Assembly (NCBI GenBank): GCA_043803405.1
Contig: JAZDKB010000019.1
Location: 304,338-368,337, forward strand
Direction: 5' to 3'
Source: Spirochaetota bacterium
Lineage (GTDB): Bacteria; Spirochaetota; UBA4802; JAFGDQ01
DNA: 64,000 nt
Below the pieces are notes generated by a model that saw nothing but the letters and a program-made list of their open reading frames with translations, had not been told where the DNA came from and did no database searches. A program made the position numbers and the translations under genes. Positions 2,720-27,884 of the stretch are shown here, in pieces. How positions within the stretch are numbered: position 1 is the first letter of the stretch; every line of letters starts with the position of its first letter.

Positions 2720-4117
2720 ATGAATCAAAATAAAAAATTATGGGGCGGCAGATTCAGCGAGCCAACATCAAATATAACAGAGAATATTTCTTCTTCTATA
2801 CATTTTGATGTAAGATTATATAAACAGGATATTGCCGGTTCCATTGCTCACGCAAAAATGCTGAACAGGATTGGCGTATTATCTGAGAGCGAACTTCTTG
2901 GCATTATTAGCGGACTCAAACAAATATTAAATGAGATCGAATCGGGTTCATTTGAATTTAAAGCATCTCTTGAAGATATTCACATGAATATCGAATCAAA
3001 GTTGACGGAACGGATAGGGGAAGCCGGTAAAAAGCTTCATACCGCAAGGTCGCGAAATGATCAGATAGCACTTGATCTGCGTTTGTATATACTGGACGAA
3101 TCTCTTGAAATAGAAAATAAGCTGAAAAGTCTTATAGAGCTTTTAACCGATATTGCTGAAAAGAATATCGGGGTTATTCTCCCCGGCTATACGCATCTCC
3201 AGGTTGCCCAGCCTGTGAGGTTAAGCCATCACATCCTCGTTTATGCATGGCAATTGCTGCGGGACATGAGAAGGCTTAAGTATGCTGCCGAAGCCTGCGA
3301 TGCTATGCCGCTAGGCACAGGCGCGCTTGCCGGAGTGAACTATAAAAACGACCGGGAATTTTTAAAAAGCGAGCTTGGTTTTTCGGAAATTACCCAAAAC
3401 TCCATGGATACGGTCAGCGACAGGGACTTTGTTCTTGACTTTTTATATTTTGCTGCTGTTTTAGGTACGCATTTTTCGCGGCTTTGCGAGGAGCTTGTTC
3501 TATGGTCGACTTCCGAGTTTGCTTTTATACGGCTTTCGGATAAAGTTACCACAGGCTCATCAATTATGCCTCAGAAAAGAAATCCGGATGTTGCTGAGCT
3601 TGTCAGAGGCAAAAGCGGCAGGCTATACGGCAATTTGATGAGTCTGCTTACAACGCTAAAGGGATTGCCTTTGACATATAACAGGGATTTGCAGGAAGAT
3701 AAAGAGCCGTTATTCGATTCCGTTGATACAATTAAGCTCTGTATAGAGGGCGTTTACGAAATGCTGTCTTCAGTAAAGATAAACGATGAGCGTATGAAGG
3801 ATGCGCTTTACAGCAATTTCTCCACTGCAACGGACGCTGCCGATTATCTTGTGAAGAAGGGTGTGCCCTTTAGGGAATCGCATGAAATTGTCGGCAATAT
3901 TGTGAATTATTGTGAAAAGAACAAGACCGGATTTTTTAATATTCCCGCTGAAATTTTAAAGAATTTTTCGCCGCAATTTAGCGAAGATATTAAAGAAATT
4001 CTGAATCCGGTGACTTCTACTGAGAGAAAAGAGTCGGCAGGCGGAACATCGACAAAAGAAATACAGAAGCAAATCGGACTAATAAAAAAACTTCTCCGGG
4101 AGAATTTATTTGGATGA
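2720..4117 (+). CDS. argH: Argininosuccinate lyase
   Basis: LWGGRF N-terminus, SRNDQ, and the fumarate-lyase signature GSSIMPQKRNPD. Length 465 aa. Confidence 0.95.
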   Translation: MNQNKKLWGGRFSEPTSNITENISSSIHFDVRLYKQDIAGSIAHAKMLNRIGVLSESELLGIISGLKQILNEIESGSFEFKASLEDIHMNIESKLTERIGEAGKKLHTARSRNDQIALDLRLYILDESLEIENKLKSLIELLTDIAEKNIGVILPGYTHLQVAQPVRLSHHILVYAWQLLRDMRRLKYAAEACDAMPLGTGALAGVNYKNDREFLKSELGFSEITQNSMDTVSDRDFVLDFLYFAAVLGTHFSRLCEELVLWSTSEFAFIRLSDKVTTGSSIMPQKRNPDVAELVRGKSGRLYGNLMSLLTTLKGLPLTYNRDLQEDKEPLFDSVDTIKLCIEGVYEMLSSVKINDERMKDALYSNFSTATDAADYLVKKGVPFRESHEIVGNIVNYCEKNKTGFFNIPAEILKNFSPQFSEDIKEILNPVTSTERKESAGGTSTKEIQKQIGLIKKLLRENLFG

Positions 4118-4805
4118 GTTATTAAAAGAATTTAGTATTTTTTCGCCATTGATAGTTCTGGTAAGGCTTCTTTTCGCAACCTTTGCAGGATTTTTAATTG
4201 GCCTTGACAGGGAAAGGCACAGTCAGCCTGCTGGGTTGCGTACTCATATGGTTATTTCTCTGGGCGCCTGCCTGCTGATGATAATTTCTATTTACATCCC
4301 TATCGAATATAATCAGAAAGGATTCAATTCGGATCCAACAAGGCTTGCTGCGCAGGTCATCAGCGGAATCGGATTTCTGGGAGCAGGAGCGATTTTTAAG
4401 TTCGGGTTTAATGTAAAGGGGCTAACAACAGCAGCTTCTATATGGACTACTTCGGGTATAGGGCTTTGCTTCGGAGCAGGGTATTATTTACTTGGAGGCA
4501 TATCCACAGCTTTTCTTATTATTATTTTATATGTATTCGATAAACTTGAAGATTTAATCATTGAACGCCGTAACTGGCGTGTAATTACAGTGGATTTTAA
4601 TTCAAAAATATTATCTGGCTCGGATATTTTTTCCGTTATAAGAGATTTCGGGATCAGTGTTAAACAGCCTTCAATAATAGAAAATCTGGAAACCAAATCT
4701 ACCGAAGTAATAATTAACTGCAGGATAGAGGAAGATTTCCAGATCAAGGCATTATTTGACAGAATAAAATCCTTAGGAAATATTAAAACAGTTAAAATTG
4801 ATTAA
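4110..4805 (+). CDS. mgtC: MgtC/SapB family membrane protein with a C-terminal ACT-like soluble domain (TTG start)
   Basis: FAGFLIGLDRERHSQPAGLRTHMVISLGACLLM is the hallmark MgtC N-terminal membrane domain. Confidence 0.8.
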   Translation: MDELLKEFSIFSPLIVLVRLLFATFAGFLIGLDRERHSQPAGLRTHMVISLGACLLMIISIYIPIEYNQKGFNSDPTRLAAQVISGIGFLGAGAIFKFGFNVKGLTTAASIWTTSGIGLCFGAGYYLLGGISTAFLIIILYVFDKLEDLIIERRNWRVITVDFNSKILSGSDIFSVIRDFGISVKQPSIIENLETKSTEVIINCRIEEDFQIKALFDRIKSLGNIKTVKID

Positions 4806-4832
4806 AAATAAATTCCTGCTTGTTGAATCCGG

Positions 4833-6467
4833 TTATTCCTTTATCTTATAAATTTTTATTTTCTGTATCTCATCCGTAAAATAATAATTATCTTTAATAT
4901 ATTTTTCAATTTTCGGAGTTGGTTTATAATGAAACGTTGAAAGACCGTTTCCAGAAGTGTCTGCAAAAAGCACAGGCTTTTTTAAGCGCATATTATTAAT
5001 AAAATCATTTTCCATTGCTTCTGCATTTTTTATTGAATCATTGTCTGCTTTATCGTAAAGACTGCTGATAACAAATATAGTCGTCTTTGGCCACAAATGG
5101 TTGATTCCCATTCTCCTCCCGGAAAAGTAATATAAATATGGTCCGTCGCCCCATACGAAAATTCTGTCTCCGGGCTTTGTAATAGTGCGGATGTATGCGC
5201 AGGCGTCTTTGTAGGATGCTTCCGGAAGAAGATAATCGTTGAATGTGCCGATGAGCGCAGCACGCATCCAGTACATCGTTCTCCCTTCGTTGTAAAATGC
5301 CTGCTGAAAATAATGTTTAATGAGAATATCTTTTGTGTTCCATGCGATAAAAAAAACTGTCGGAATTAAAATTAGTATTGTGATTTTATCTTTAATTTTT
5401 TTTATTGCAGGAAAATTCACTTCATTAAGCGAATAAGCGCCTGTAATGCACAGGGCAGGGTAGACTGATATAAAGTAATGAAAATATAATCTTGATCCGC
5501 CTGCGAATATCAGTAAATAGGTAATTATAAATAATACTGCGGAAGCAGAAACAAGGAGGGATTCATTTCTAAATTTATTTTTAATGAACAGAAATAGAAA
5601 TACGAATGCCGATATCCACACCGCGAAGTGCCATAATGAAAGCATGAGCTGCCTGTGGATATATTTTGCAGAAAAGACAAGCGGACTAAAGCCCTGTACC
5701 GAGCTGTATGTTAACTTGCCTGCGGCATCTGTTAAAAGTCTTTGCGCAAAGATGTGCGTTACGAAATAATCCAGAACTGAAAGTGAGATAAGTGCTGCAA
5801 TGACCGATAACAATGCAGAGAAATATTTTAGCGTAAATTTCTTTTTATAATACGGCACGTAAATTATAAGCATAAATGCCATGAAAATAAAAAATATAAG
5901 GCCGTGGAATTTTACATAAGCAGCGCAAACGCCCATTACCGTACTTAGACAAAGAAATATAAATCGTTTCCCTGTTTTATATTGTTCATCAAGAAACAGA
6001 ATAAAGAAATAGAATCCTGCTGAAACCGGAAGATTGTAAACGATTTCGCCGTTTGTAGCCATGAAATGCCGGTTGAATGAAGAGATTAAGACAGCATAAA
6101 GCAGGGAAGCCAGCGCTCCTGTTTTAAAGCCGTTTATTTTATCGCCTGTTGAATAAATAAAAATTGCTGTTAAGAAGATAATGAAAACAGTAAACACGTG
6201 CACAAGCACCCAGCCGTTTTGCGGCATTAAAAAATAAGCTGCTTTAAAGATCGCGTGGTAAAGCGGGAGTTTGCTCTCGGTAAAATCTTTTCCAGGGACA
6301 TCGCCTGCCATGTATTCGTGGGTCTGTACAATAGCTGCCAGCTCGTCTACGTCATAGAAGTCGTTAAATAGTGTGGGCAGACGGCATAACAAGGTTGCTG
6401 CAAAAAGAATCAGCAGAAATAGATATTTTTTCTGCTCGAGCTTATTGATGAATGTTAACAGATGCAT
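4833..6467 (-). CDS. GT-C fold membrane glycosyltransferase (ArnT/PMT-like, family 39/83-type)
   Basis: More than 10 predicted TM helices. A DVDE acidic motif lies in the first loop (FNDFYDVDELAAIV). The C-terminus is a soluble domain of about 150 aa. Confidence 0.5.
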   Translation of the reverse strand: MHLLTFINKLEQKKYLFLLILFAATLLCRLPTLFNDFYDVDELAAIVQTHEYMAGDVPGKDFTESKLPLYHAIFKAAYFLMPQNGWVLVHVFTVFIIFLTAIFIYSTGDKINGFKTGALASLLYAVLISSFNRHFMATNGEIVYNLPVSAGFYFFILFLDEQYKTGKRFIFLCLSTVMGVCAAYVKFHGLIFFIFMAFMLIIYVPYYKKKFTLKYFSALLSVIAALISLSVLDYFVTHIFAQRLLTDAAGKLTYSSVQGFSPLVFSAKYIHRQLMLSLWHFAVWISAFVFLFLFIKNKFRNESLLVSASAVLFIITYLLIFAGGSRLYFHYFISVYPALCITGAYSLNEVNFPAIKKIKDKITILILIPTVFFIAWNTKDILIKHYFQQAFYNEGRTMYWMRAALIGTFNDYLLPEASYKDACAYIRTITKPGDRIFVWGDGPYLYYFSGRRMGINHLWPKTTIFVISSLYDKADNDSIKNAEAMENDFINNMRLKKPVLFADTSGNGLSTFHYKPTPKIEKYIKDNYYFTDEIQKIKIYKIKE

Positions 6468-7336: not shown

Positions 7337-8167
7337 TTATTTCCAGGTGATCCTGGGTTTTCTGCGCTGAGGCAAACGATAGTAACGTGGGACAGGGTAT
7401 CCCAGCATCATCGGGTAATGATGTATGCGGTCTTCTGCAAGCCCGAGCGATTTGAAAGCAGACGGCCAGTTCTTAAGAGCATTCTCAAGCAGGCCTGCCC
7501 AGCATGTGCCCAGTCCGAACAATGGAGCCGATAACTCCAGATAAGATAAAGCAAGCGATATATCCACCATTCCGTAGACTACATCTTTCGGCGCTGATAT
7601 TATAATCAGAGCAGGTGCATCCCTGAGAATCATGTCTTTCCCTGCTTCCCATGCTTCAACGATGAGAGGATAATATGGCGCGCTCGGCACCCCGTTATGT
7701 TTTTTTATGTCGTCGCGTATCCAGTCTACTGCAAATCCGGACAAAGCCTTCATTTCGGCCTTATCCGTGTAAACCAGCCATTCCAGGCGCTGCGCATTCC
7801 TTGCTGTCGGTGCGTATTTTGCAATCTCGATCAGCTGCTCTATTTTTTCTTTCTCCACAGCTTTGTCTTTAAAACGTCTAATGGAGCGTCTTGACCTTAG
7901 GAATTGTATTGCCTGATCTTTGTTTATAGCAAGTTTATCGTCGATTAAAGGAGACTCTTCTATAGGGACATTCGTATGGCTGATTGCATCATGGGGACAC
8001 ACTGCGACGCAATGTCCGCATGAATTGCATATTTTTTCAGCATTGGGTATCAGCTTCGGATAACCGTTCTCCTTATCCGTTTCAATCAAGTTGAATGGGC
8101 ATTCGTCAATGCAAAGCATGTCTTTTTTACATTTTGTCCGGTCAATGATCAGATAATCTTCTTTCAT
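7337..8167 (-). CDS. 2x[4Fe-4S] ferredoxin domain fused to a nitroreductase-family domain
   Basis: CIDECP and CNSCGHCVAVCP cluster motifs, followed by RRSIRRFKDK...APTARNAQ (nitroreductase NAD(P)H-flavin motif). Confidence 0.7.
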   Translation of the reverse strand: MKEDYLIIDRTKCKKDMLCIDECPFNLIETDKENGYPKLIPNAEKICNSCGHCVAVCPHDAISHTNVPIEESPLIDDKLAINKDQAIQFLRSRRSIRRFKDKAVEKEKIEQLIEIAKYAPTARNAQRLEWLVYTDKAEMKALSGFAVDWIRDDIKKHNGVPSAPYYPLIVEAWEAGKDMILRDAPALIIISAPKDVVYGMVDISLALSYLELSAPLFGLGTCWAGLLENALKNWPSAFKSLGLAEDRIHHYPMMLGYPVPRYYRLPQRRKPRITWK

Positions 8168-8345
8168 TTTGTTAATAGCATATAAAGTGAACTGGAAATA
8201 ATAAAAAATTAAACAGACTAAATACTAATTCAATATTAAAATATTATTGTGAATTATATTAAAACTAGTCAAGGAGTAATTAAACGCAATTGAAATATTT
8301 AGAACTCATCTCGAAAATATATTCCTACACAAGATAGCTGATTTT

Positions 8346-8470
8346 AAATTGAAATACATAACAAAATTTTCTGCGGAATCAGGCCTTCAAAGAAAATTTT
8401 TCAAGTTTTTAAGGGTTATTGCTTCAGGCCTGAAAGGCGTCCTCAAAAATTTGGTTATGTATTTCAATAT
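8346..8470. repeat. 125-bp element with about 23-bp AT-rich terminal inverted repeats (AAATTGAAATACATAACAAAATTTT / AAAAATTTGGTTATGTATTTCAATAT). The arms enclose two copies of a TCAGGCCT(T/G)(C/A)AAAG motif, one of which contains the 12-bp palindrome TTCAGGCCTGAA.
   Basis: Read directly from the sequence. It lies in the 480-bp intergenic region between the divergent nitroreductase gene and rmlA. Confidence 0.7.
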
Positions 8471-8646
8471 ATCATATATAAAACTTAATTTTGAGATGAA
8501 TTCTAATCCATTAAGTCTATAAATATTATTACTGCAGGTTTGCATAGCGGATAATTTCTTCTAAAAAATCGCTTTACTATTGAACATGTATAAATAATTT
8601 ATAACAATACATTATTAAACAAAATATTTTCAAGGAAAATTAAATT

Positions 8647-9519
8647 ATGAAGGGAATAATTCTGGCCGGGGGCGCAGGCACAAGGCTTTATCCGATAACA
8701 CATGTTGTCTGCAAACAGCTTCTTCCTGTGTATGATAAACCTATGATATATTATCCGCTGTCGACTCTTATGCTGGCAGGCATCAGGGATATACTTATTA
8801 TTTCAACTCCTGAAGACCTTCCGAAGATAAAAAATCTGCTGGGGAACGGGAGCAATCTTGGACTTTCTCTGCATTATAAGGTTCAGGAAGTCCCGCGCGG
8901 TCTTGCGGACGCGTTTATTGTAGGCGAGGAATTTGCCGGCAATGACAAAATTTGCCTTATACTCGGCGATAACATATTCTACGGCCACGGCCTGCCGGAG
9001 ATTATGAAGGAAGCGGGTTCGCACGAAAAAGGAGCAACTGTTTTCGGGTATTATGTGAGCGACCCTGAGAGATACGGAGTTGTGGATTTTGATGACAAGG
9101 GCAATGTGCTTTCGCTTGAAGAGAAGCCTGCGACACCGAAATCCAATTATGCTGTTGTTGGTTTATATTTTTACGACAATACTGTTGTCCGGAAAGCGAA
9201 AGCTTTAAAGCCTTCAAAAAGAGGGGAGATTGAGATAACGGATTTAAACAATGTGTATTTGAAGGAAAATCAGCTTCGCGTAAAACTTATGGGACGCGGA
9301 TTTGCCTGGCTCGATACTGGCACTCATTCATCCATGATAGATGCTGCTTTATATGTTAAGACAATCGAGGACAGGCAGGGACTTAAGATTTCGTGTATTG
9401 AAGAGATCGCGTATACTATGGGATTTATTGATGCCGACCAGCTGAGAAAAATAGCGGAACCTTTAAGAAAGTCCGGATACGGCGAATATCTTTTGAAAAT
9501 ACTGGAGATGAAAAAGTAA
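8647..9519 (+). CDS. rfbA: Glucose-1-phosphate thymidylyltransferase
   Basis: [18 protein letters not shown]...[16 protein letters not shown], a canonical RmlA N-terminus. 290 aa. Confidence 0.95.
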
Positions 9520-11688: not shown

Positions 11689-11763
11689 TATAAGCAGTCT
11701 TTATGCTGCGTTTTTATAATTCAGCATATTGCAATATAATCAGGTAAGTTTTTGCTTCGGATA

Positions 11764-11796
11764 CCCCGACAATGCTGTCGGGGTATTTTGTTTTTT
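11764..11796 (+). terminator. Rho-independent terminator: CCCCGACA-atgc-TGTCGGGG followed by TATTTTGTTTTTT
   Basis: A perfect 8-bp GC-rich stem plus a U-tract immediately after the acyl-CoA dehydrogenase stop. Confidence 0.8.
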
Positions 11797-11851
11797 ATGC
11801 ATGATATGCTTTTTTTACTTGCTGATTTTTCCACAAAGTCAATGTTATGCT

Positions 11852-12853
11852 ATGCTGCCTGCTTCTTTCCCATATTGTTTTGCGCCAATGGATAATCTGA
11901 GCAACCCTGTGCTCAGAAATTTGATTGCCGCTACACTGCCGACCGGAACGCAGATGGCCTTTTTTAGCCCTGCAATTAATCCCAATTCAGTCCTGAGCAA
12001 AAGACCCAATTTGAAAGAAAATCTGCCGATTAATCCGGGTGAAATTCTATATTACAACATGATGCACGGCGACCCGGATATTATACTTGCCGGAATGGAA
12101 AAAATGCTCGAGCTAAATCCCGCTGGATTTAACCTGAACTGCGGCTGTCCAAGGTCAAAAATCCAGAAAAAAGGGAAGTGTCCCATAGGCGTTGCACTGA
12201 TGGATCATCCTGCGCAGGTCGCAGCTATTGTAAAGGCAGCGAAAAAGACATTCCCGTCTGTTCATTTCAGCATCAAGATCAGGGCCGGCGTGCGGCACAA
12301 CCTGCCGGCGCTCTATGACTTTTGCAGGCAGGCTGAAGATGCCGGATGCGACGCAATTATTTTTCATGCCCGTTCCGCTGAAGACCAGTTCAAAAGGCCT
12401 GCACGGCACACCATGTTCGGCGAGTTGAAGCAGCGTCTGGGCGTTCCGCTGATAGGTAACGGAGATATTATTACGGATGAACAGGCTGTTGCTGTGAAAG
12501 AGAAATACGGGCTTGATGGCGTAATGATAGGCAGGGGCGCTCTGCTTACTCCAGGCATATTCCGGGCAATTGCATACAGGCTGGCCGGAAAACCGCTTAG
12601 CCATCCTGTCATGTCGTGGACAGAAAAAAGGGATTTCCTGATGTGGTTTGTTCAGGCTACGGAAATTAAATTCGGAACAGCCGTTATGCTTCGCAGAACC
12701 AGGCTGTTTGCCCGCTGGCTGTGTCAGGGCCTGGAATCCGGGCTAGCGCTTGACGGCAATCTCCACAAAGCAAAAACTTTGGAAGATACGCTTGCAACAA
12801 TTAATAAATTTTTTGAAAAGCCCAGAAGGCAGTACACAGATGTGATTTTATAA
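11852..12853 (+). CDS. dus: tRNA-dihydrouridine synthase (Dus family). The start is reassigned to 11852 (MLPASF...) because the track start at 11729 lies upstream of the terminator.
   Basis: Dus motifs LNCGCP (catalytic Cys), IKIRAG, GNGDI. The terminator at 11764-11796 sits inside the track's 5' extension. Confidence 0.75.
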   Translation: MLPASFPYCFAPMDNLSNPVLRNLIAATLPTGTQMAFFSPAINPNSVLSKRPNLKENLPINPGEILYYNMMHGDPDIILAGMEKMLELNPAGFNLNCGCPRSKIQKKGKCPIGVALMDHPAQVAAIVKAAKKTFPSVHFSIKIRAGVRHNLPALYDFCRQAEDAGCDAIIFHARSAEDQFKRPARHTMFGELKQRLGVPLIGNGDIITDEQAVAVKEKYGLDGVMIGRGALLTPGIFRAIAYRLAGKPLSHPVMSWTEKRDFLMWFVQATEIKFGTAVMLRRTRLFARWLCQGLESGLALDGNLHKAKTLEDTLATINKFFEKPRRQYTDVIL

Positions 12854-12998
12854 TCCTTCCATAATTATTTTTCAGCAGGATTGTTTTTTTGCTATAATAA
12901 AAATATTAATCTGTGCATTCTTTCCGGACATTGCATGCAGAACTTCATCAAAATATATAATATACTTATTCAATTTGACTGATTTTTTTTACTTTCAA

Positions 12999-13112
12999 GA
13001 TAAATGTCATAGTAATTATCAATTTTAAGGCGGCAGGATGCCGCCGCTAGCCGCTTCTTACAGGATGTATGCATTAGCGGCGAGAAAATTGATGATTACT
13101 ATGACATTTATC
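12999..13112. repeat. 114-bp element with 28-bp AT-rich inverted-repeat arms (GATAAATGTCATAGTAATTATCAATTTT / AAAATTGATGATTACTATGACATTTATC). The arms flank a GC-rich core with mutually exclusive hairpins (GGCGGC-aggat-GCCGCC versus CGCCGCTAG...TTAGCGGCG).
   Basis: Read directly. It begins at the -10 of a TTGACT-N17-GATAAA promoter-like site (12975-13004) and ends 41 bp before the kinase gene start. Confidence 0.7.
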
Positions 13113-13153
13113 CATAAGTTAACTTTAATATTACATAAAAAAAGTCAGCCAAG

Positions 13154-14191
13154 ATGAGTTATTTAATAATAATATTCGATAATATTAATATGTTTGCCGA
13201 CTATCAAATACATAATTTCATAAAAAGTTCAACCGGCGAATCCTATGAGGTCTCAAAGCTAAAGGGAGACGCGTCTGCCAGAGAATATTACAGGATCAAT
13301 TCCGGCAATAAAAGTTATATGCTCTGCATAGATAATAATTTGAAGGGAATTACCCCGGAACAATACGCGTTCTGCATTGTGCATAATTTATTAAGGAAGA
13401 ACGGGATTCCTGTCCCGGATATTTACTCTATTGATGAAAAAGCAGGATTGCTTCTCATCCAGGACCTGGGTGATTCTCTCATTGAGCAGAACTTTGAGAG
13501 CATGAGCAAAAGCGAACGCGCCGGGTTATACGGCGATCTTATCGACACAGTTGCAAAAATTCAATTCATTAGCGGCGATGAAAAAACTGTTCCATTCAGT
13601 TTGTCTTTCGACGTTCCAAAGCTAATGTACGAGTTTAATTTTTTTATTGATAACGCCCTTATCGGTTATTTTAAATCCGGTATATCGGGTGATCTTCTTG
13701 AAGAGCTTCGCAGCGAATTTAATAAGATATCCGTGATCCTGTATAAGCCCGAACTTTTTGTTCTGAATCACAGGGATCTTCATAGCAGAAATATAATGAT
13801 ACGCGACAGCAAACCATACCTGATTGACTTTCAGGACGCGAGGATGGGACTGCCGCAGTATGATGTGGTTTCTCTTTTGCGCGATTCATACCTGCGGATT
13901 GAAGACGGCCTTGTCGACAGTCTTAAAAAAAAGCATTTTAATATCCTGAAAGCGAGAGGTTACAGCCGTATGGAGTACGACGAATACGAATATTATTTTG
14001 ATATCATGGCCTTTCAGAGAAATGTAAAGGCACTCGGAACCTTCGGTTACCAGGTTACAACATTGGGAAAGAATCTTTATCAAAGATATATTATGCCAAC
14101 TATGGCGTATTTGAAGGATTATATTAAAAGAAGAAGCGACCTATCCGGGGCCGCAGGAATTCTAAAAAGATTTATAGAGGTGGACTGGTGA
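13154..14191 (+). CDS. APH-fold (aminoglycoside phosphotransferase-like) small-molecule kinase. Candidates are an anomeric MurNAc/GlcNAc kinase of AmgK type or a LicA-like kinase.
   Basis: KLKGDASAREYYRI nucleotide-binding region. HRDLHSRNIMI catalytic loop (Brenner motif). IDFQDA metal-binding motif. Confidence 0.55.
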   Translation: MSYLIIIFDNINMFADYQIHNFIKSSTGESYEVSKLKGDASAREYYRINSGNKSYMLCIDNNLKGITPEQYAFCIVHNLLRKNGIPVPDIYSIDEKAGLLLIQDLGDSLIEQNFESMSKSERAGLYGDLIDTVAKIQFISGDEKTVPFSLSFDVPKLMYEFNFFIDNALIGYFKSGISGDLLEELRSEFNKISVILYKPELFVLNHRDLHSRNIMIRDSKPYLIDFQDARMGLPQYDVVSLLRDSYLRIEDGLVDSLKKKHFNILKARGYSRMEYDEYEYYFDIMAFQRNVKALGTFGYQVTTLGKNLYQRYIMPTMAYLKDYIKRRSDLSGAAGILKRFIEVDW

Positions 14192-27641: not shown

Positions 27642-27856
27642 ATAAATCCGGCATTTTAAGTAATAAATTCAATTATTTGAACAAAACTCCCCTGCAATTG
27701 CGTTAAACGTTGAATCGTATGAATACATATGTGCCGCTAATGCCCCCTAACCCCCTGAGGGGGCATAATGAATTTCAGTCACATTGCTTTTCTGCTTCTG
27801 ATCACTGTATAATTTAAATTCAACACTATGTCTTCCAGTTAAAACCATCCAAGCCG

Positions 27857-27884
27857 GTGCCCCCTCCGGGGGATAGGGGGCCAG
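27857..27884 (-). terminator. GC hairpin (CCCCC-TCC-GGGGG) followed by a T-run on the minus strand, immediately 3' of cusB. A near-identical CCCCCTGAGGGGG hairpin is at 27741-27753.
   Basis: Read directly. Putative terminator or attenuator between cusB and the cusA promoter/repeat array. Confidence 0.4.

Follow-up and report, generated by a model that had tools for sequence, protein, structure and literature searches.

TwoAYGGAY (RF01731; Weinberg et al. 2010, PMC2864571) is an RNA motif from the human gut, Clostridiales, and gamma-Proteobacteria in which a long closing stem, P1, encloses two adjacent hairpins of the A(Y)GGAY type. P1 was described as "often very large (e.g., 24 base pairs...)", and some members carry a short P1 (PMC2864571 supplement). 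The motif was judged to be probably not cis-regulatory (PMC2864571), several copies in its seed alignment come from one genome (NC_008709), and no function has been demonstrated for it since 2010. Together with the reverse complement of Bacillaceae-1 (RF01690), a family of Bacillales and Lactobacillales, TwoAYGGAY has been put forward as a CsrA-binding RNA (PMC4333381). The CsrA consensus obtained by SELEX is RUACARGGAUGU, with the GGA in a hairpin loop; cultured spirochaetes carry fliW-csrA, and Leptospira is without homologues of csrB and csrC (PMC8668096). For spirochaetes, no RNA has been shown to antagonize CsrA, and only one "CsrA-like" noncoding RNA, a prediction, is on record (PMC4863578).

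Here we analyze an element of this kind in a 64-kb stretch of DNA from a member of the Spirochaetota, called the window below. The element is a variant of the known, functionally uncharacterized TwoAYGGAY-like motif, in a phylum not listed for that motif, and it is inserted into the leader of a kinase gene rather than evolved for that leader.

Fold of the element and its resemblance to TwoAYGGAY

A preliminary description of the locus had reported 28-bp near-perfect inverted-repeat arms around a 59-bp GC-rich core. The arms are indeed 28 nt each and 96% complementary, the sole non-Watson-Crick position between them being a U.G wobble on the plus strand. The core is GC rich (about 60%) as described, but the arms are separated by 58 nt rather than 59. 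Folded as RNA, the plus strand of the element reaches -58.6 kcal/mol (z = -11.2 versus 200 shuffles), and the minus strand is slightly weaker at -53.6 kcal/mol. The extent originally given to the element, 12999 to 13112, holds for the arms but is too short for the whole, as pairing continues outward through an imperfect outer stem. The full hairpin spans about 12968 to 13159, that is, about 192 nt, and the fold of 12965 to 13165 reaches -76.2 kcal/mol (z = -9.7). Because the pairing extends past P1, the hexamer TTGACT falls inside the element.

The core consists of two side-by-side hairpins, both with CA-GGA-UG at the tip (Table 1). The two CAGGAUG sequences lie at 13034 to 13040 and 13061 to 13067, which places their GGAs 27 nt apart. 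In the fold of the element, base-pair probabilities are about 0.65 to 0.99 for hairpin 1 and at least 0.96 for the outer stem of hairpin 2. A mutually exclusive pairing within the core had also been proposed, and a helix between 13042 to 13049 and 13075 to 13082 can indeed be drawn. Enforcing it, however, costs 6.4 kcal/mol in the element (-52.2 versus -58.6 kcal/mol) and 5.6 kcal/mol in the core alone, with pair probabilities of about 0.00. The competing helix is not thermodynamically competitive, and the two core hairpins coexist.

Table 1. Coordinates of the element and of the operon features around it (positions in the window)
Feature	Position	Strand	Description and basis
Best operon promoter candidate	12869..12898	+	TTTTCA-18-TATAAT with TG (extended -10); promoter scan, conserved alignment columns
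Outer stem, 5' arm	12968..12994	+	Imperfect; contains TTGACT 12975-12980; inside window-only block 12972-13165
Closing stem P1, 5' arm	12999..13026	+	28 nt; complementarity, fold
Hairpin 1	13029..13045	+	GGCGGCA-GGA-UGCCGCC, 7 bp, GGA at tip; fold, RF01731 alignment, covariation
Hairpin 2, composite	13050..13081	+	Fold, pair probabilities, RF01731 alignment
Hairpin 2, outer stem	13050-13055 / 13076-13081	+	GCCGCU/AGCGGC
Hairpin 2, inner hairpin	13059-13069	+	UACA-GGA-UGUA; 3' bulge UGCAUU follows within hairpin 2
Closing stem P1, 3' arm	13085..13112	+	28 nt; complementarity, fold
Outer stem, 3' arm	13116..13159	+	Imperfect; includes AAAAAAAGUCAGCCAA, pairs with 12968-12994
APH-family kinase gene	13190..14191	+	Probable start at ATG 13190; Pfam APH; homologue lengths; start context

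An Rfam/Infernal scan, which the preliminary description had suggested, gave nothing at gathering level in the window, but a sensitive scan returned a near-threshold match to TwoAYGGAY. This match covers the full length of the model (positions 1 to 168) at 12983 to 13128 on the plus strand and scores 39.0 bits (E = 5e-5 to 7e-5 in a 300- to 400-nt search), below the gathering cutoff of 43; it is not listed in a whole-window scan at E ≤ 1. The RF01731 alignment pairs the long P1 and both GGAUG-tipped hairpins of the window element. Four clostridial elements with identical CAGGAUG loops (L100, L015, L019, and L035, the last from Ruminiclostridium cellobioparum DSM 1351) score 48 to 60 bits, above the TwoAYGGAY cutoff. 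A second long, AT-rich hairpin of the window, at 8345 to 8471, served as a control and matched generic long-hairpin models only, without any match to TwoAYGGAY, thus indicating that the match of the element is not due to its stem alone. Bacillaceae-1 gave matches of 25 to 26.5 bits to the window core and to two relatives, L021 and L078, on the strand opposite the GGA strand. No Csr/Rsm family appeared in the Rfam scan of the window.

Neither further copies of the arms with up to 3 mismatches (0 expected by chance) nor other copies of the element, searched by motif pair or covariance model with filters off, were found in the 64-kb window. The control hairpin at 8345 to 8471 has 26-nt arms, 92% complementary and 75 nt apart (z = -5 to -6), and two UCAGGCCU motifs in its interior. 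It lies between a nitroreductase/4Fe-4S gene (7337 to 8167, minus strand) and a divergent NTP_transferase gene (8647 to 9519, plus strand). As a candidate sibling copy it was rejected (similarity z = 0.3 to 1.5, no TwoAYGGAY match, and no match to R1, the core model introduced below). A GC-rich inverted repeat, GCCCCCTAACCCCCTGAGGGGGCA / TGCCCCCTCCGGGGGATAGGGGGC, is present at 27742 to 27881, with 24-nt arms 92 nt apart, each of them hairpin-like. Over the whole window, CAGGATG occurs 13 times on the two strands, twice of these in the element, versus 6.2 ± 2.1 expected, a count reached in 0/100 shuffles.

The kinase leader and its orthologs

The structured element lies where the preliminary description had placed it, in the leader region of the kinase/nucleotidyltransferase operon. 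By Pfam, the plus-strand genes around it are dus (11729 to 12853), the APH-family kinase, an NTP-transferase, and an SSF symporter; some homologues of the kinase are named N-acetylmuramate 1-kinase by their sources. A scan for a terminator-like site between dus and the kinase gene found none. The promoter candidate listed in Table 1 is the only one called on the plus strand and lies upstream of the insertion; the block holding it, 12884 to 12905 (TTTTTTTGCTATAATAAAAATA), is common to the orthologous leaders L001 and L002. A promoter TTGACT-N17-GATAAA had been assigned to the start of the element, but the spacer between these hexamers (12975 to 12980 and 12999 to 13004) is 18 nt, the -10 hexamer is without T at position 6, and the pair is not called in the consensus promoter scan. 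The element had been taken from this to form the first 110 nt of the mRNA; a transcript beginning about 7 nt past GATAAA would lose about 12 nt of the 5' arm.

Both the kinase open reading frame and the 345-residue database protein P0001, which is 100% identical to it and comes from a Spirochaetota MAG, begin at ATG 13154, and the first 12 codons from this ATG overlap the outer arm of the inserted hairpin. Kinase homologues are 331 to 338 residues long, covering 94 to 97% of the 345-residue frame, and the start context AATATTAATATGTTTGC is common to L001. The true start is probably ATG 13190, giving 333 residues, and not ATG 13154. A start at ATG 13190 would leave about 77 nt between P1 and the start codon, or about 30 nt if counted from the outer stem. 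Reading the sequence around the kinase start codon revealed neither a GGA nor a sequestering pairing; the lack of a GGA there makes classical CsrA translational repression of the operon unlikely.

Orthologous kinase loci were available from L001 (78% protein identity), L002/L003 (75%), L004 (68%), and L005 (67%); these five loci amount to four distinct leaders, L002/L003 being counted once. By alignment, the element is absent from all of them. MAFFT matched the promoter-like block and the start context of the window to those of L001 and L002 and left 12972 to 13165 of the window (194 nt) unmatched, a block that coincides with the hairpin span 12968 to 13159. A covariance model built of the core (R1) scored the element at 48.9 bits, with the next best score in the window at 10 bits, and found no match in L001, L002, L004, and L005. 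Since the element is absent from the orthologs and the unmatched block corresponds to the hairpin span, we regard it as a lineage-specific insertion between promoter and start codon, and it is very probable that a TwoAYGGAY-like repeat was inserted here and that the element is not an operon-specific riboswitch. The preliminary description had treated the element as a dedicated regulator, a view which, on its own terms, absence from orthologous leaders would speak against; the element is missing from 4/4 distinct leaders.

In L001, the closest of these loci, a tandem array of about 240 nt (3420 to 3680) with a period of 21/42 nt, the consensus AATAAACAATCAGAYNGAAAG, and 70 to 80% matches precedes the kinase gene by about 350 nt; a few of its units contain CAGGAT.

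Relatives in other genomes and covariation

Relatives were collected by a motif-pair scan (GGCAGGATGCC-N8-25-ACAGGATGT, one genome per species), a pattern that fixes the loops. The pair was found at at least 118 loci across phyla versus about 20 by an estimate that assumes uniform composition, a figure that GC-rich genomes would raise. At least four extra stem pairs were present in 54/123 matches, compared to 12.9 ± 3.2 with permuted flanks. Some matches are chance or conserved coding sequence, as in Rhizobiaceae. Viral contigs gave only 3 motif matches and no sign of a phage link. Close siblings were also sought in metagenomes with a strict pattern, which yielded L124 alone; its element region, as far as read, is identical to that of L069. 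No consistent gene neighbor was found among the relatives. Many closely follow a co-oriented gene or sit between two convergent ones (L060, L061, L078, L033, L017, L035, and L069), and some lie upstream of genes; L069/L124 precedes an ABC-transporter permease gene by about 75 nt. R1 detected clustered extra copies in L095, L064, L046, and L115.

Elements with the architecture of the window element occur at seven loci of six further Spirochaetota genomes (L021, L060, L078, L061, L069, L089, and L095) as well as in Clostridia and further phyla, and the composite hairpin 2 recurs in L021, L060, L078, L061, L095, L008, L102, and others. Several of the Spirochaetota relatives have short closing stems only. 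In L095 (Spirochaetota MAG JTS-AC436), positions 4700 to 4980 contain GGA hairpins (CAGGAUGA, GGCAGGAUGCC) followed by an intrinsic terminator at 4852 to 4876 and, after it, a separate two-hairpin module at 4922 to 4980. This stretch is a candidate CsrA-sponge-like small-RNA locus in a spirochaete.

Families resembling MITEs, with near-perfect stems of 28 to 47 bp, were found in a Bdellovibrionia MAG and in L017 and L079. At least 9 long-stem copies with a common terminal GA(A/G)CAAA motif were counted in the loci retrieved from the Bdellovibrionia MAG, including 4 within 8 kb of L082. In L082, the four copies are arranged as two adjacent pairs in opposite orientation (1000 to 1348 and 5621 to 5990); their arms vary from copy to copy, each copy being self-complementary, and the mismatches are mostly A.C on the GGA strand.

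Other matches belong to layouts of a different kind. Five gammaproteobacterial loci (L011, L058, L076, L108, and L029) are tandem arrays of alternating GGCAGGAUGCC and ACAGGAUGU GGA hairpins, that of L029 comprising three units of about 135 nt. L011, L058, and L044 gave no Rfam family at gathering level, so that the arrays of L011 and L058 may be unannotated small RNAs of the Csr/Rsm type. In three Acidobacteriota (L051, L056, and L093), the motif pair forms the 5' leader of a flagellin gene, the downstream flagellin being confirmed by Pfam, and the second GGA lies 11 to 12 nt before the ATG, at the Shine-Dalgarno position. This layout points to CsrA as a regulator of flagellin in Solibacteraceae and Bryobacteraceae. 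REP-like repeats containing the motif pair occur in Acidobacteriota, Thermoanaerobaculia, and Planctomycetota. In the Planctomycetaceae MAG RUP_SRG_40, a stretch of about 120 nt with the motif pair is identical in at least six contigs (L018, L022, L040, L063, L083, and L092) and has recognizable relatives in Tautonia, Kuenenia, and Pirellulaceae (L070, L071, and L113); the stretch probably belongs to a larger repeat or to a conserved noncoding RNA.

In a partly hand-picked set of 16 window-type cores, both hairpin stems covary, with a score of 0.343 versus 0.094 for shuffled data (0/500). Double-sided changes filled 39 cells in the pattern-free parts of the stems, and slid partners scored 0.04 to 0.11. 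As MAFFT could not bring the outer stem of hairpin 2 into register, these counts cover hairpin 1 and the inner part of hairpin 2 only. In the Bdellovibrionota family (9 copies, 8 of them from one genome), whose arms lay outside the search pattern, 33/47 predicted pairs showed compensatory changes; the core of about 55 nt is largely conserved while the arms diverge. Among the long-stem copies, we counted 3 G.U versus 9 A.C wobbles on the GGA strand, a ratio that favors the non-GGA strand and is not significant, and their orientation relative to co-directional neighbors was about 3:3. Both results differ from the prediction of RNA-level selection on the GGA strand. Target-site duplications were sought at the window element and 11 further long-stem copies and found at none of them; instead, the inverted repeat continues outward.

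Readings of the insert and comparison with known systems

With modest confidence, we favor the view that the inserted repeat of about 190 nt acts as a handle or decoy for CsrA on the leader RNA. It contains two consensus GGA loops within reach of one CsrA dimer. CAGGAUG is the consensus of the CsrB repeats, and the spacing of dual CsrA sites ranges from 10 to 63 nt. The element would be transcribed from the conserved upstream promoter within a leader of about 285 nt, and its RNA would fold as an autonomous domain in which the two GGA hairpins could together provide one CsrA dimer with a bipartite high-affinity site. The long stem may keep both GGA sites presented, and RNase III could plausibly cut a duplex of this length (at least 28 bp) and so release the module. 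The element would thus serve as a CsrA handle or decoy on the transcript and not as a metabolite sensor or an alternative-fold control of the operon. A decoy or handle role, or none, is more likely than classical translational repression. Whether the RNA binds CsrA in vivo is close to evenly balanced in our judgment, leaning slightly to the negative. CsrA is assumed to be present in the host MAG from its phylum; tblastn with CsrA and FliW of Escherichia coli and Bacillus subtilis detected neither csrA nor fliW in the 64-kb window.

The preliminary description had mentioned a MITE-like origin as its fallback, and much of the evidence agrees with it: the inverted repeats and the insertion polymorphism fit it, while the missing target-site duplication and the arms, which are not conserved, do not. 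A selfish MITE- or REP-like DNA repeat, recognized by a transposase or recombinase or simply tolerated, would have no RNA role, and its likeness to a CsrA site would be incidental. We hold this to be rather unlikely, yet the strand and orientation results and the lack of csrA in the window keep it a serious rival. It would account for the presence/absence polymorphism at the orthologous site, the near-perfect long arms, the multicopy long-stem relatives in the Bdellovibrionia MAG, the several TwoAYGGAY seeds from NC_008709, and the lack of both an orientation bias and a G.U preference for the GGA strand. In a typical MITE, however, the terminal repeats are the conserved part, the reverse of what is seen here, where the core is conserved and the arms are not. 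Moreover, no target-site duplication adjoins the arms, no transposase partner was identified, the 64-kb window holds one copy only, and flagellin leaders and sponge-like arrays have exactly this loop motif as an RNA signal. A role in RNA processing or stability, through RNase III cleavage or an exonuclease block that would uncouple dus from the kinase operon or stabilize a flanking transcript, with the GGA loops of secondary importance, has a low probability. The very stable stem, the lack of an intrinsic terminator between dus and the kinase gene, and the many relatives just 3' of a co-oriented gene or between convergent genes would suit such a role, but it leaves the conserved, covarying pair of GGA-tipped hairpins unexplained, no U-tract is present, and several Spirochaetota relatives make do with short closing stems.

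Highly improbable is a separate gene for a small RNA, with the internal TTGACT...GATAAA pair as its promoter. In its favor, the TwoAYGGAY motif was judged to be probably not cis-regulatory (PMC2864571), and the spirochaetal locus L095 does have GGA hairpins followed by an intrinsic terminator; at the window element, by contrast, the hexamer pair fails the scan on its spacer and its -10, a start about 7 nt downstream would remove some 12 nt of the 5' arm, and no terminator follows. The least probable reading, to which we give hardly any credence, is the operon-specific riboswitch or attenuator, in which alternative pairing of GCCGCC would switch the kinase/nucleotidyltransferase genes on a ligand. 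The element does lie on the sense strand between promoter and start codon, and an 8-bp alternative helix can be drawn. This reading was rejected on the absence of the element from the four distinct orthologous leaders, on the energetic cost and near-zero pair probability of the alternative helix, on the lack of a terminator, and on the lack of any riboswitch family match to the element in Rfam. Furthermore, the start region is unpaired with the element, the alternative helix needs a local GCCGC duplication that was not seen, by inspection, in relatives such as L021 and L060, and the relatives, spread over many genomes, occupy unrelated loci, often 3' of a gene or between two convergent ones. 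The kinase/nucleotidyltransferase/symporter leader thus carries no conserved metabolite-sensing RNA, and ligand screening with MurNAc, GlcNAc, or choline, as once proposed, is not justified by the evidence.

A broader extension of the CsrA handle or decoy reading, which we consider decidedly unlikely, is that the element is one of a class of mobile and self-clamping "CsrA-site cassettes" spread across phyla, small palindromes whose conserved cargo would be a bipartite site for a CsrA dimer. The class may span Spirochaetota, Bdellovibrionota, Clostridia, and Gammaproteobacteria, and its long stems may evolve by compensatory change or template switching. If this were true, cassettes inserting in transcription units would put transcripts under CsrA control and could jointly titrate CsrA in phyla for which the protein FliW is taken to be the sole antagonist; TwoAYGGAY would gain a function and FliW-type Csr systems an RNA antagonist. 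If modules of two GGA hairpins bind CsrA, insertion-polymorphic copies could rewire or buffer CsrA regulons via mobile DNA.

Among known systems, the MITEs and intergenic palindromic repeats of bacteria (e.g., Correia/NEMIS, ERIC, RUP, and REP/BIME) resemble the element in small size, long inverted-repeat arms, intergenic position, insertion polymorphism, cotranscription with neighbors, and multicopy related families. They differ from it in that here a target-site duplication is missing, the arms covary and are not the same from copy to copy, and the central core is conserved. With Csr/Rsm sponges (CsrB, CsrC, and RsmX/Y/Z) and the CsrA operators of flagellin leaders, the element has in common GGA in short hairpin loops within CAGGAUG, and its two sites are spaced for one CsrA dimer, as in CsrA targets. 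Its motif pair also retrieves flagellin leaders, with the classic CsrA operator layout, and tandem arrays of GGA hairpins. In contrast to sponge small RNAs, which have many repeated GGA hairpins, it has two sites only, with no terminator and no convincing internal promoter of its own, and unlike CsrA operators, it lies in the mRNA leader without overlapping the ribosome-binding site.

The compact two-hairpin module with GGA loops is like the reverse complement of Bacillaceae-1, in agreement with the suggested CsrA motif (PMC4333381), but its score is far under the 35-bit cutoff, and that family is without a long closing stem and comes from different taxa. In overall layout, the element has the anatomy of TwoAYGGAY, in which a long P1 likewise encloses two adjacent A(Y)GGAY-type hairpins and which, at the level of the family, is multicopy and without consistent gene association; in the window, P1 is a 28-bp stem with one G.U wobble, plus the outer stem. 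The element departs from that motif in its loops, CA-GGA-UG versus CAUGGAUG, which are one base shorter and without the Y, in the loss of the inner 5-bp stem and internal loops (model positions about 33 to 48 and 110 to 136 are deleted or unaligned), in the composite hairpin 2 with its outer stem and 3' bulge, and in its host, a member of the Spirochaetota.
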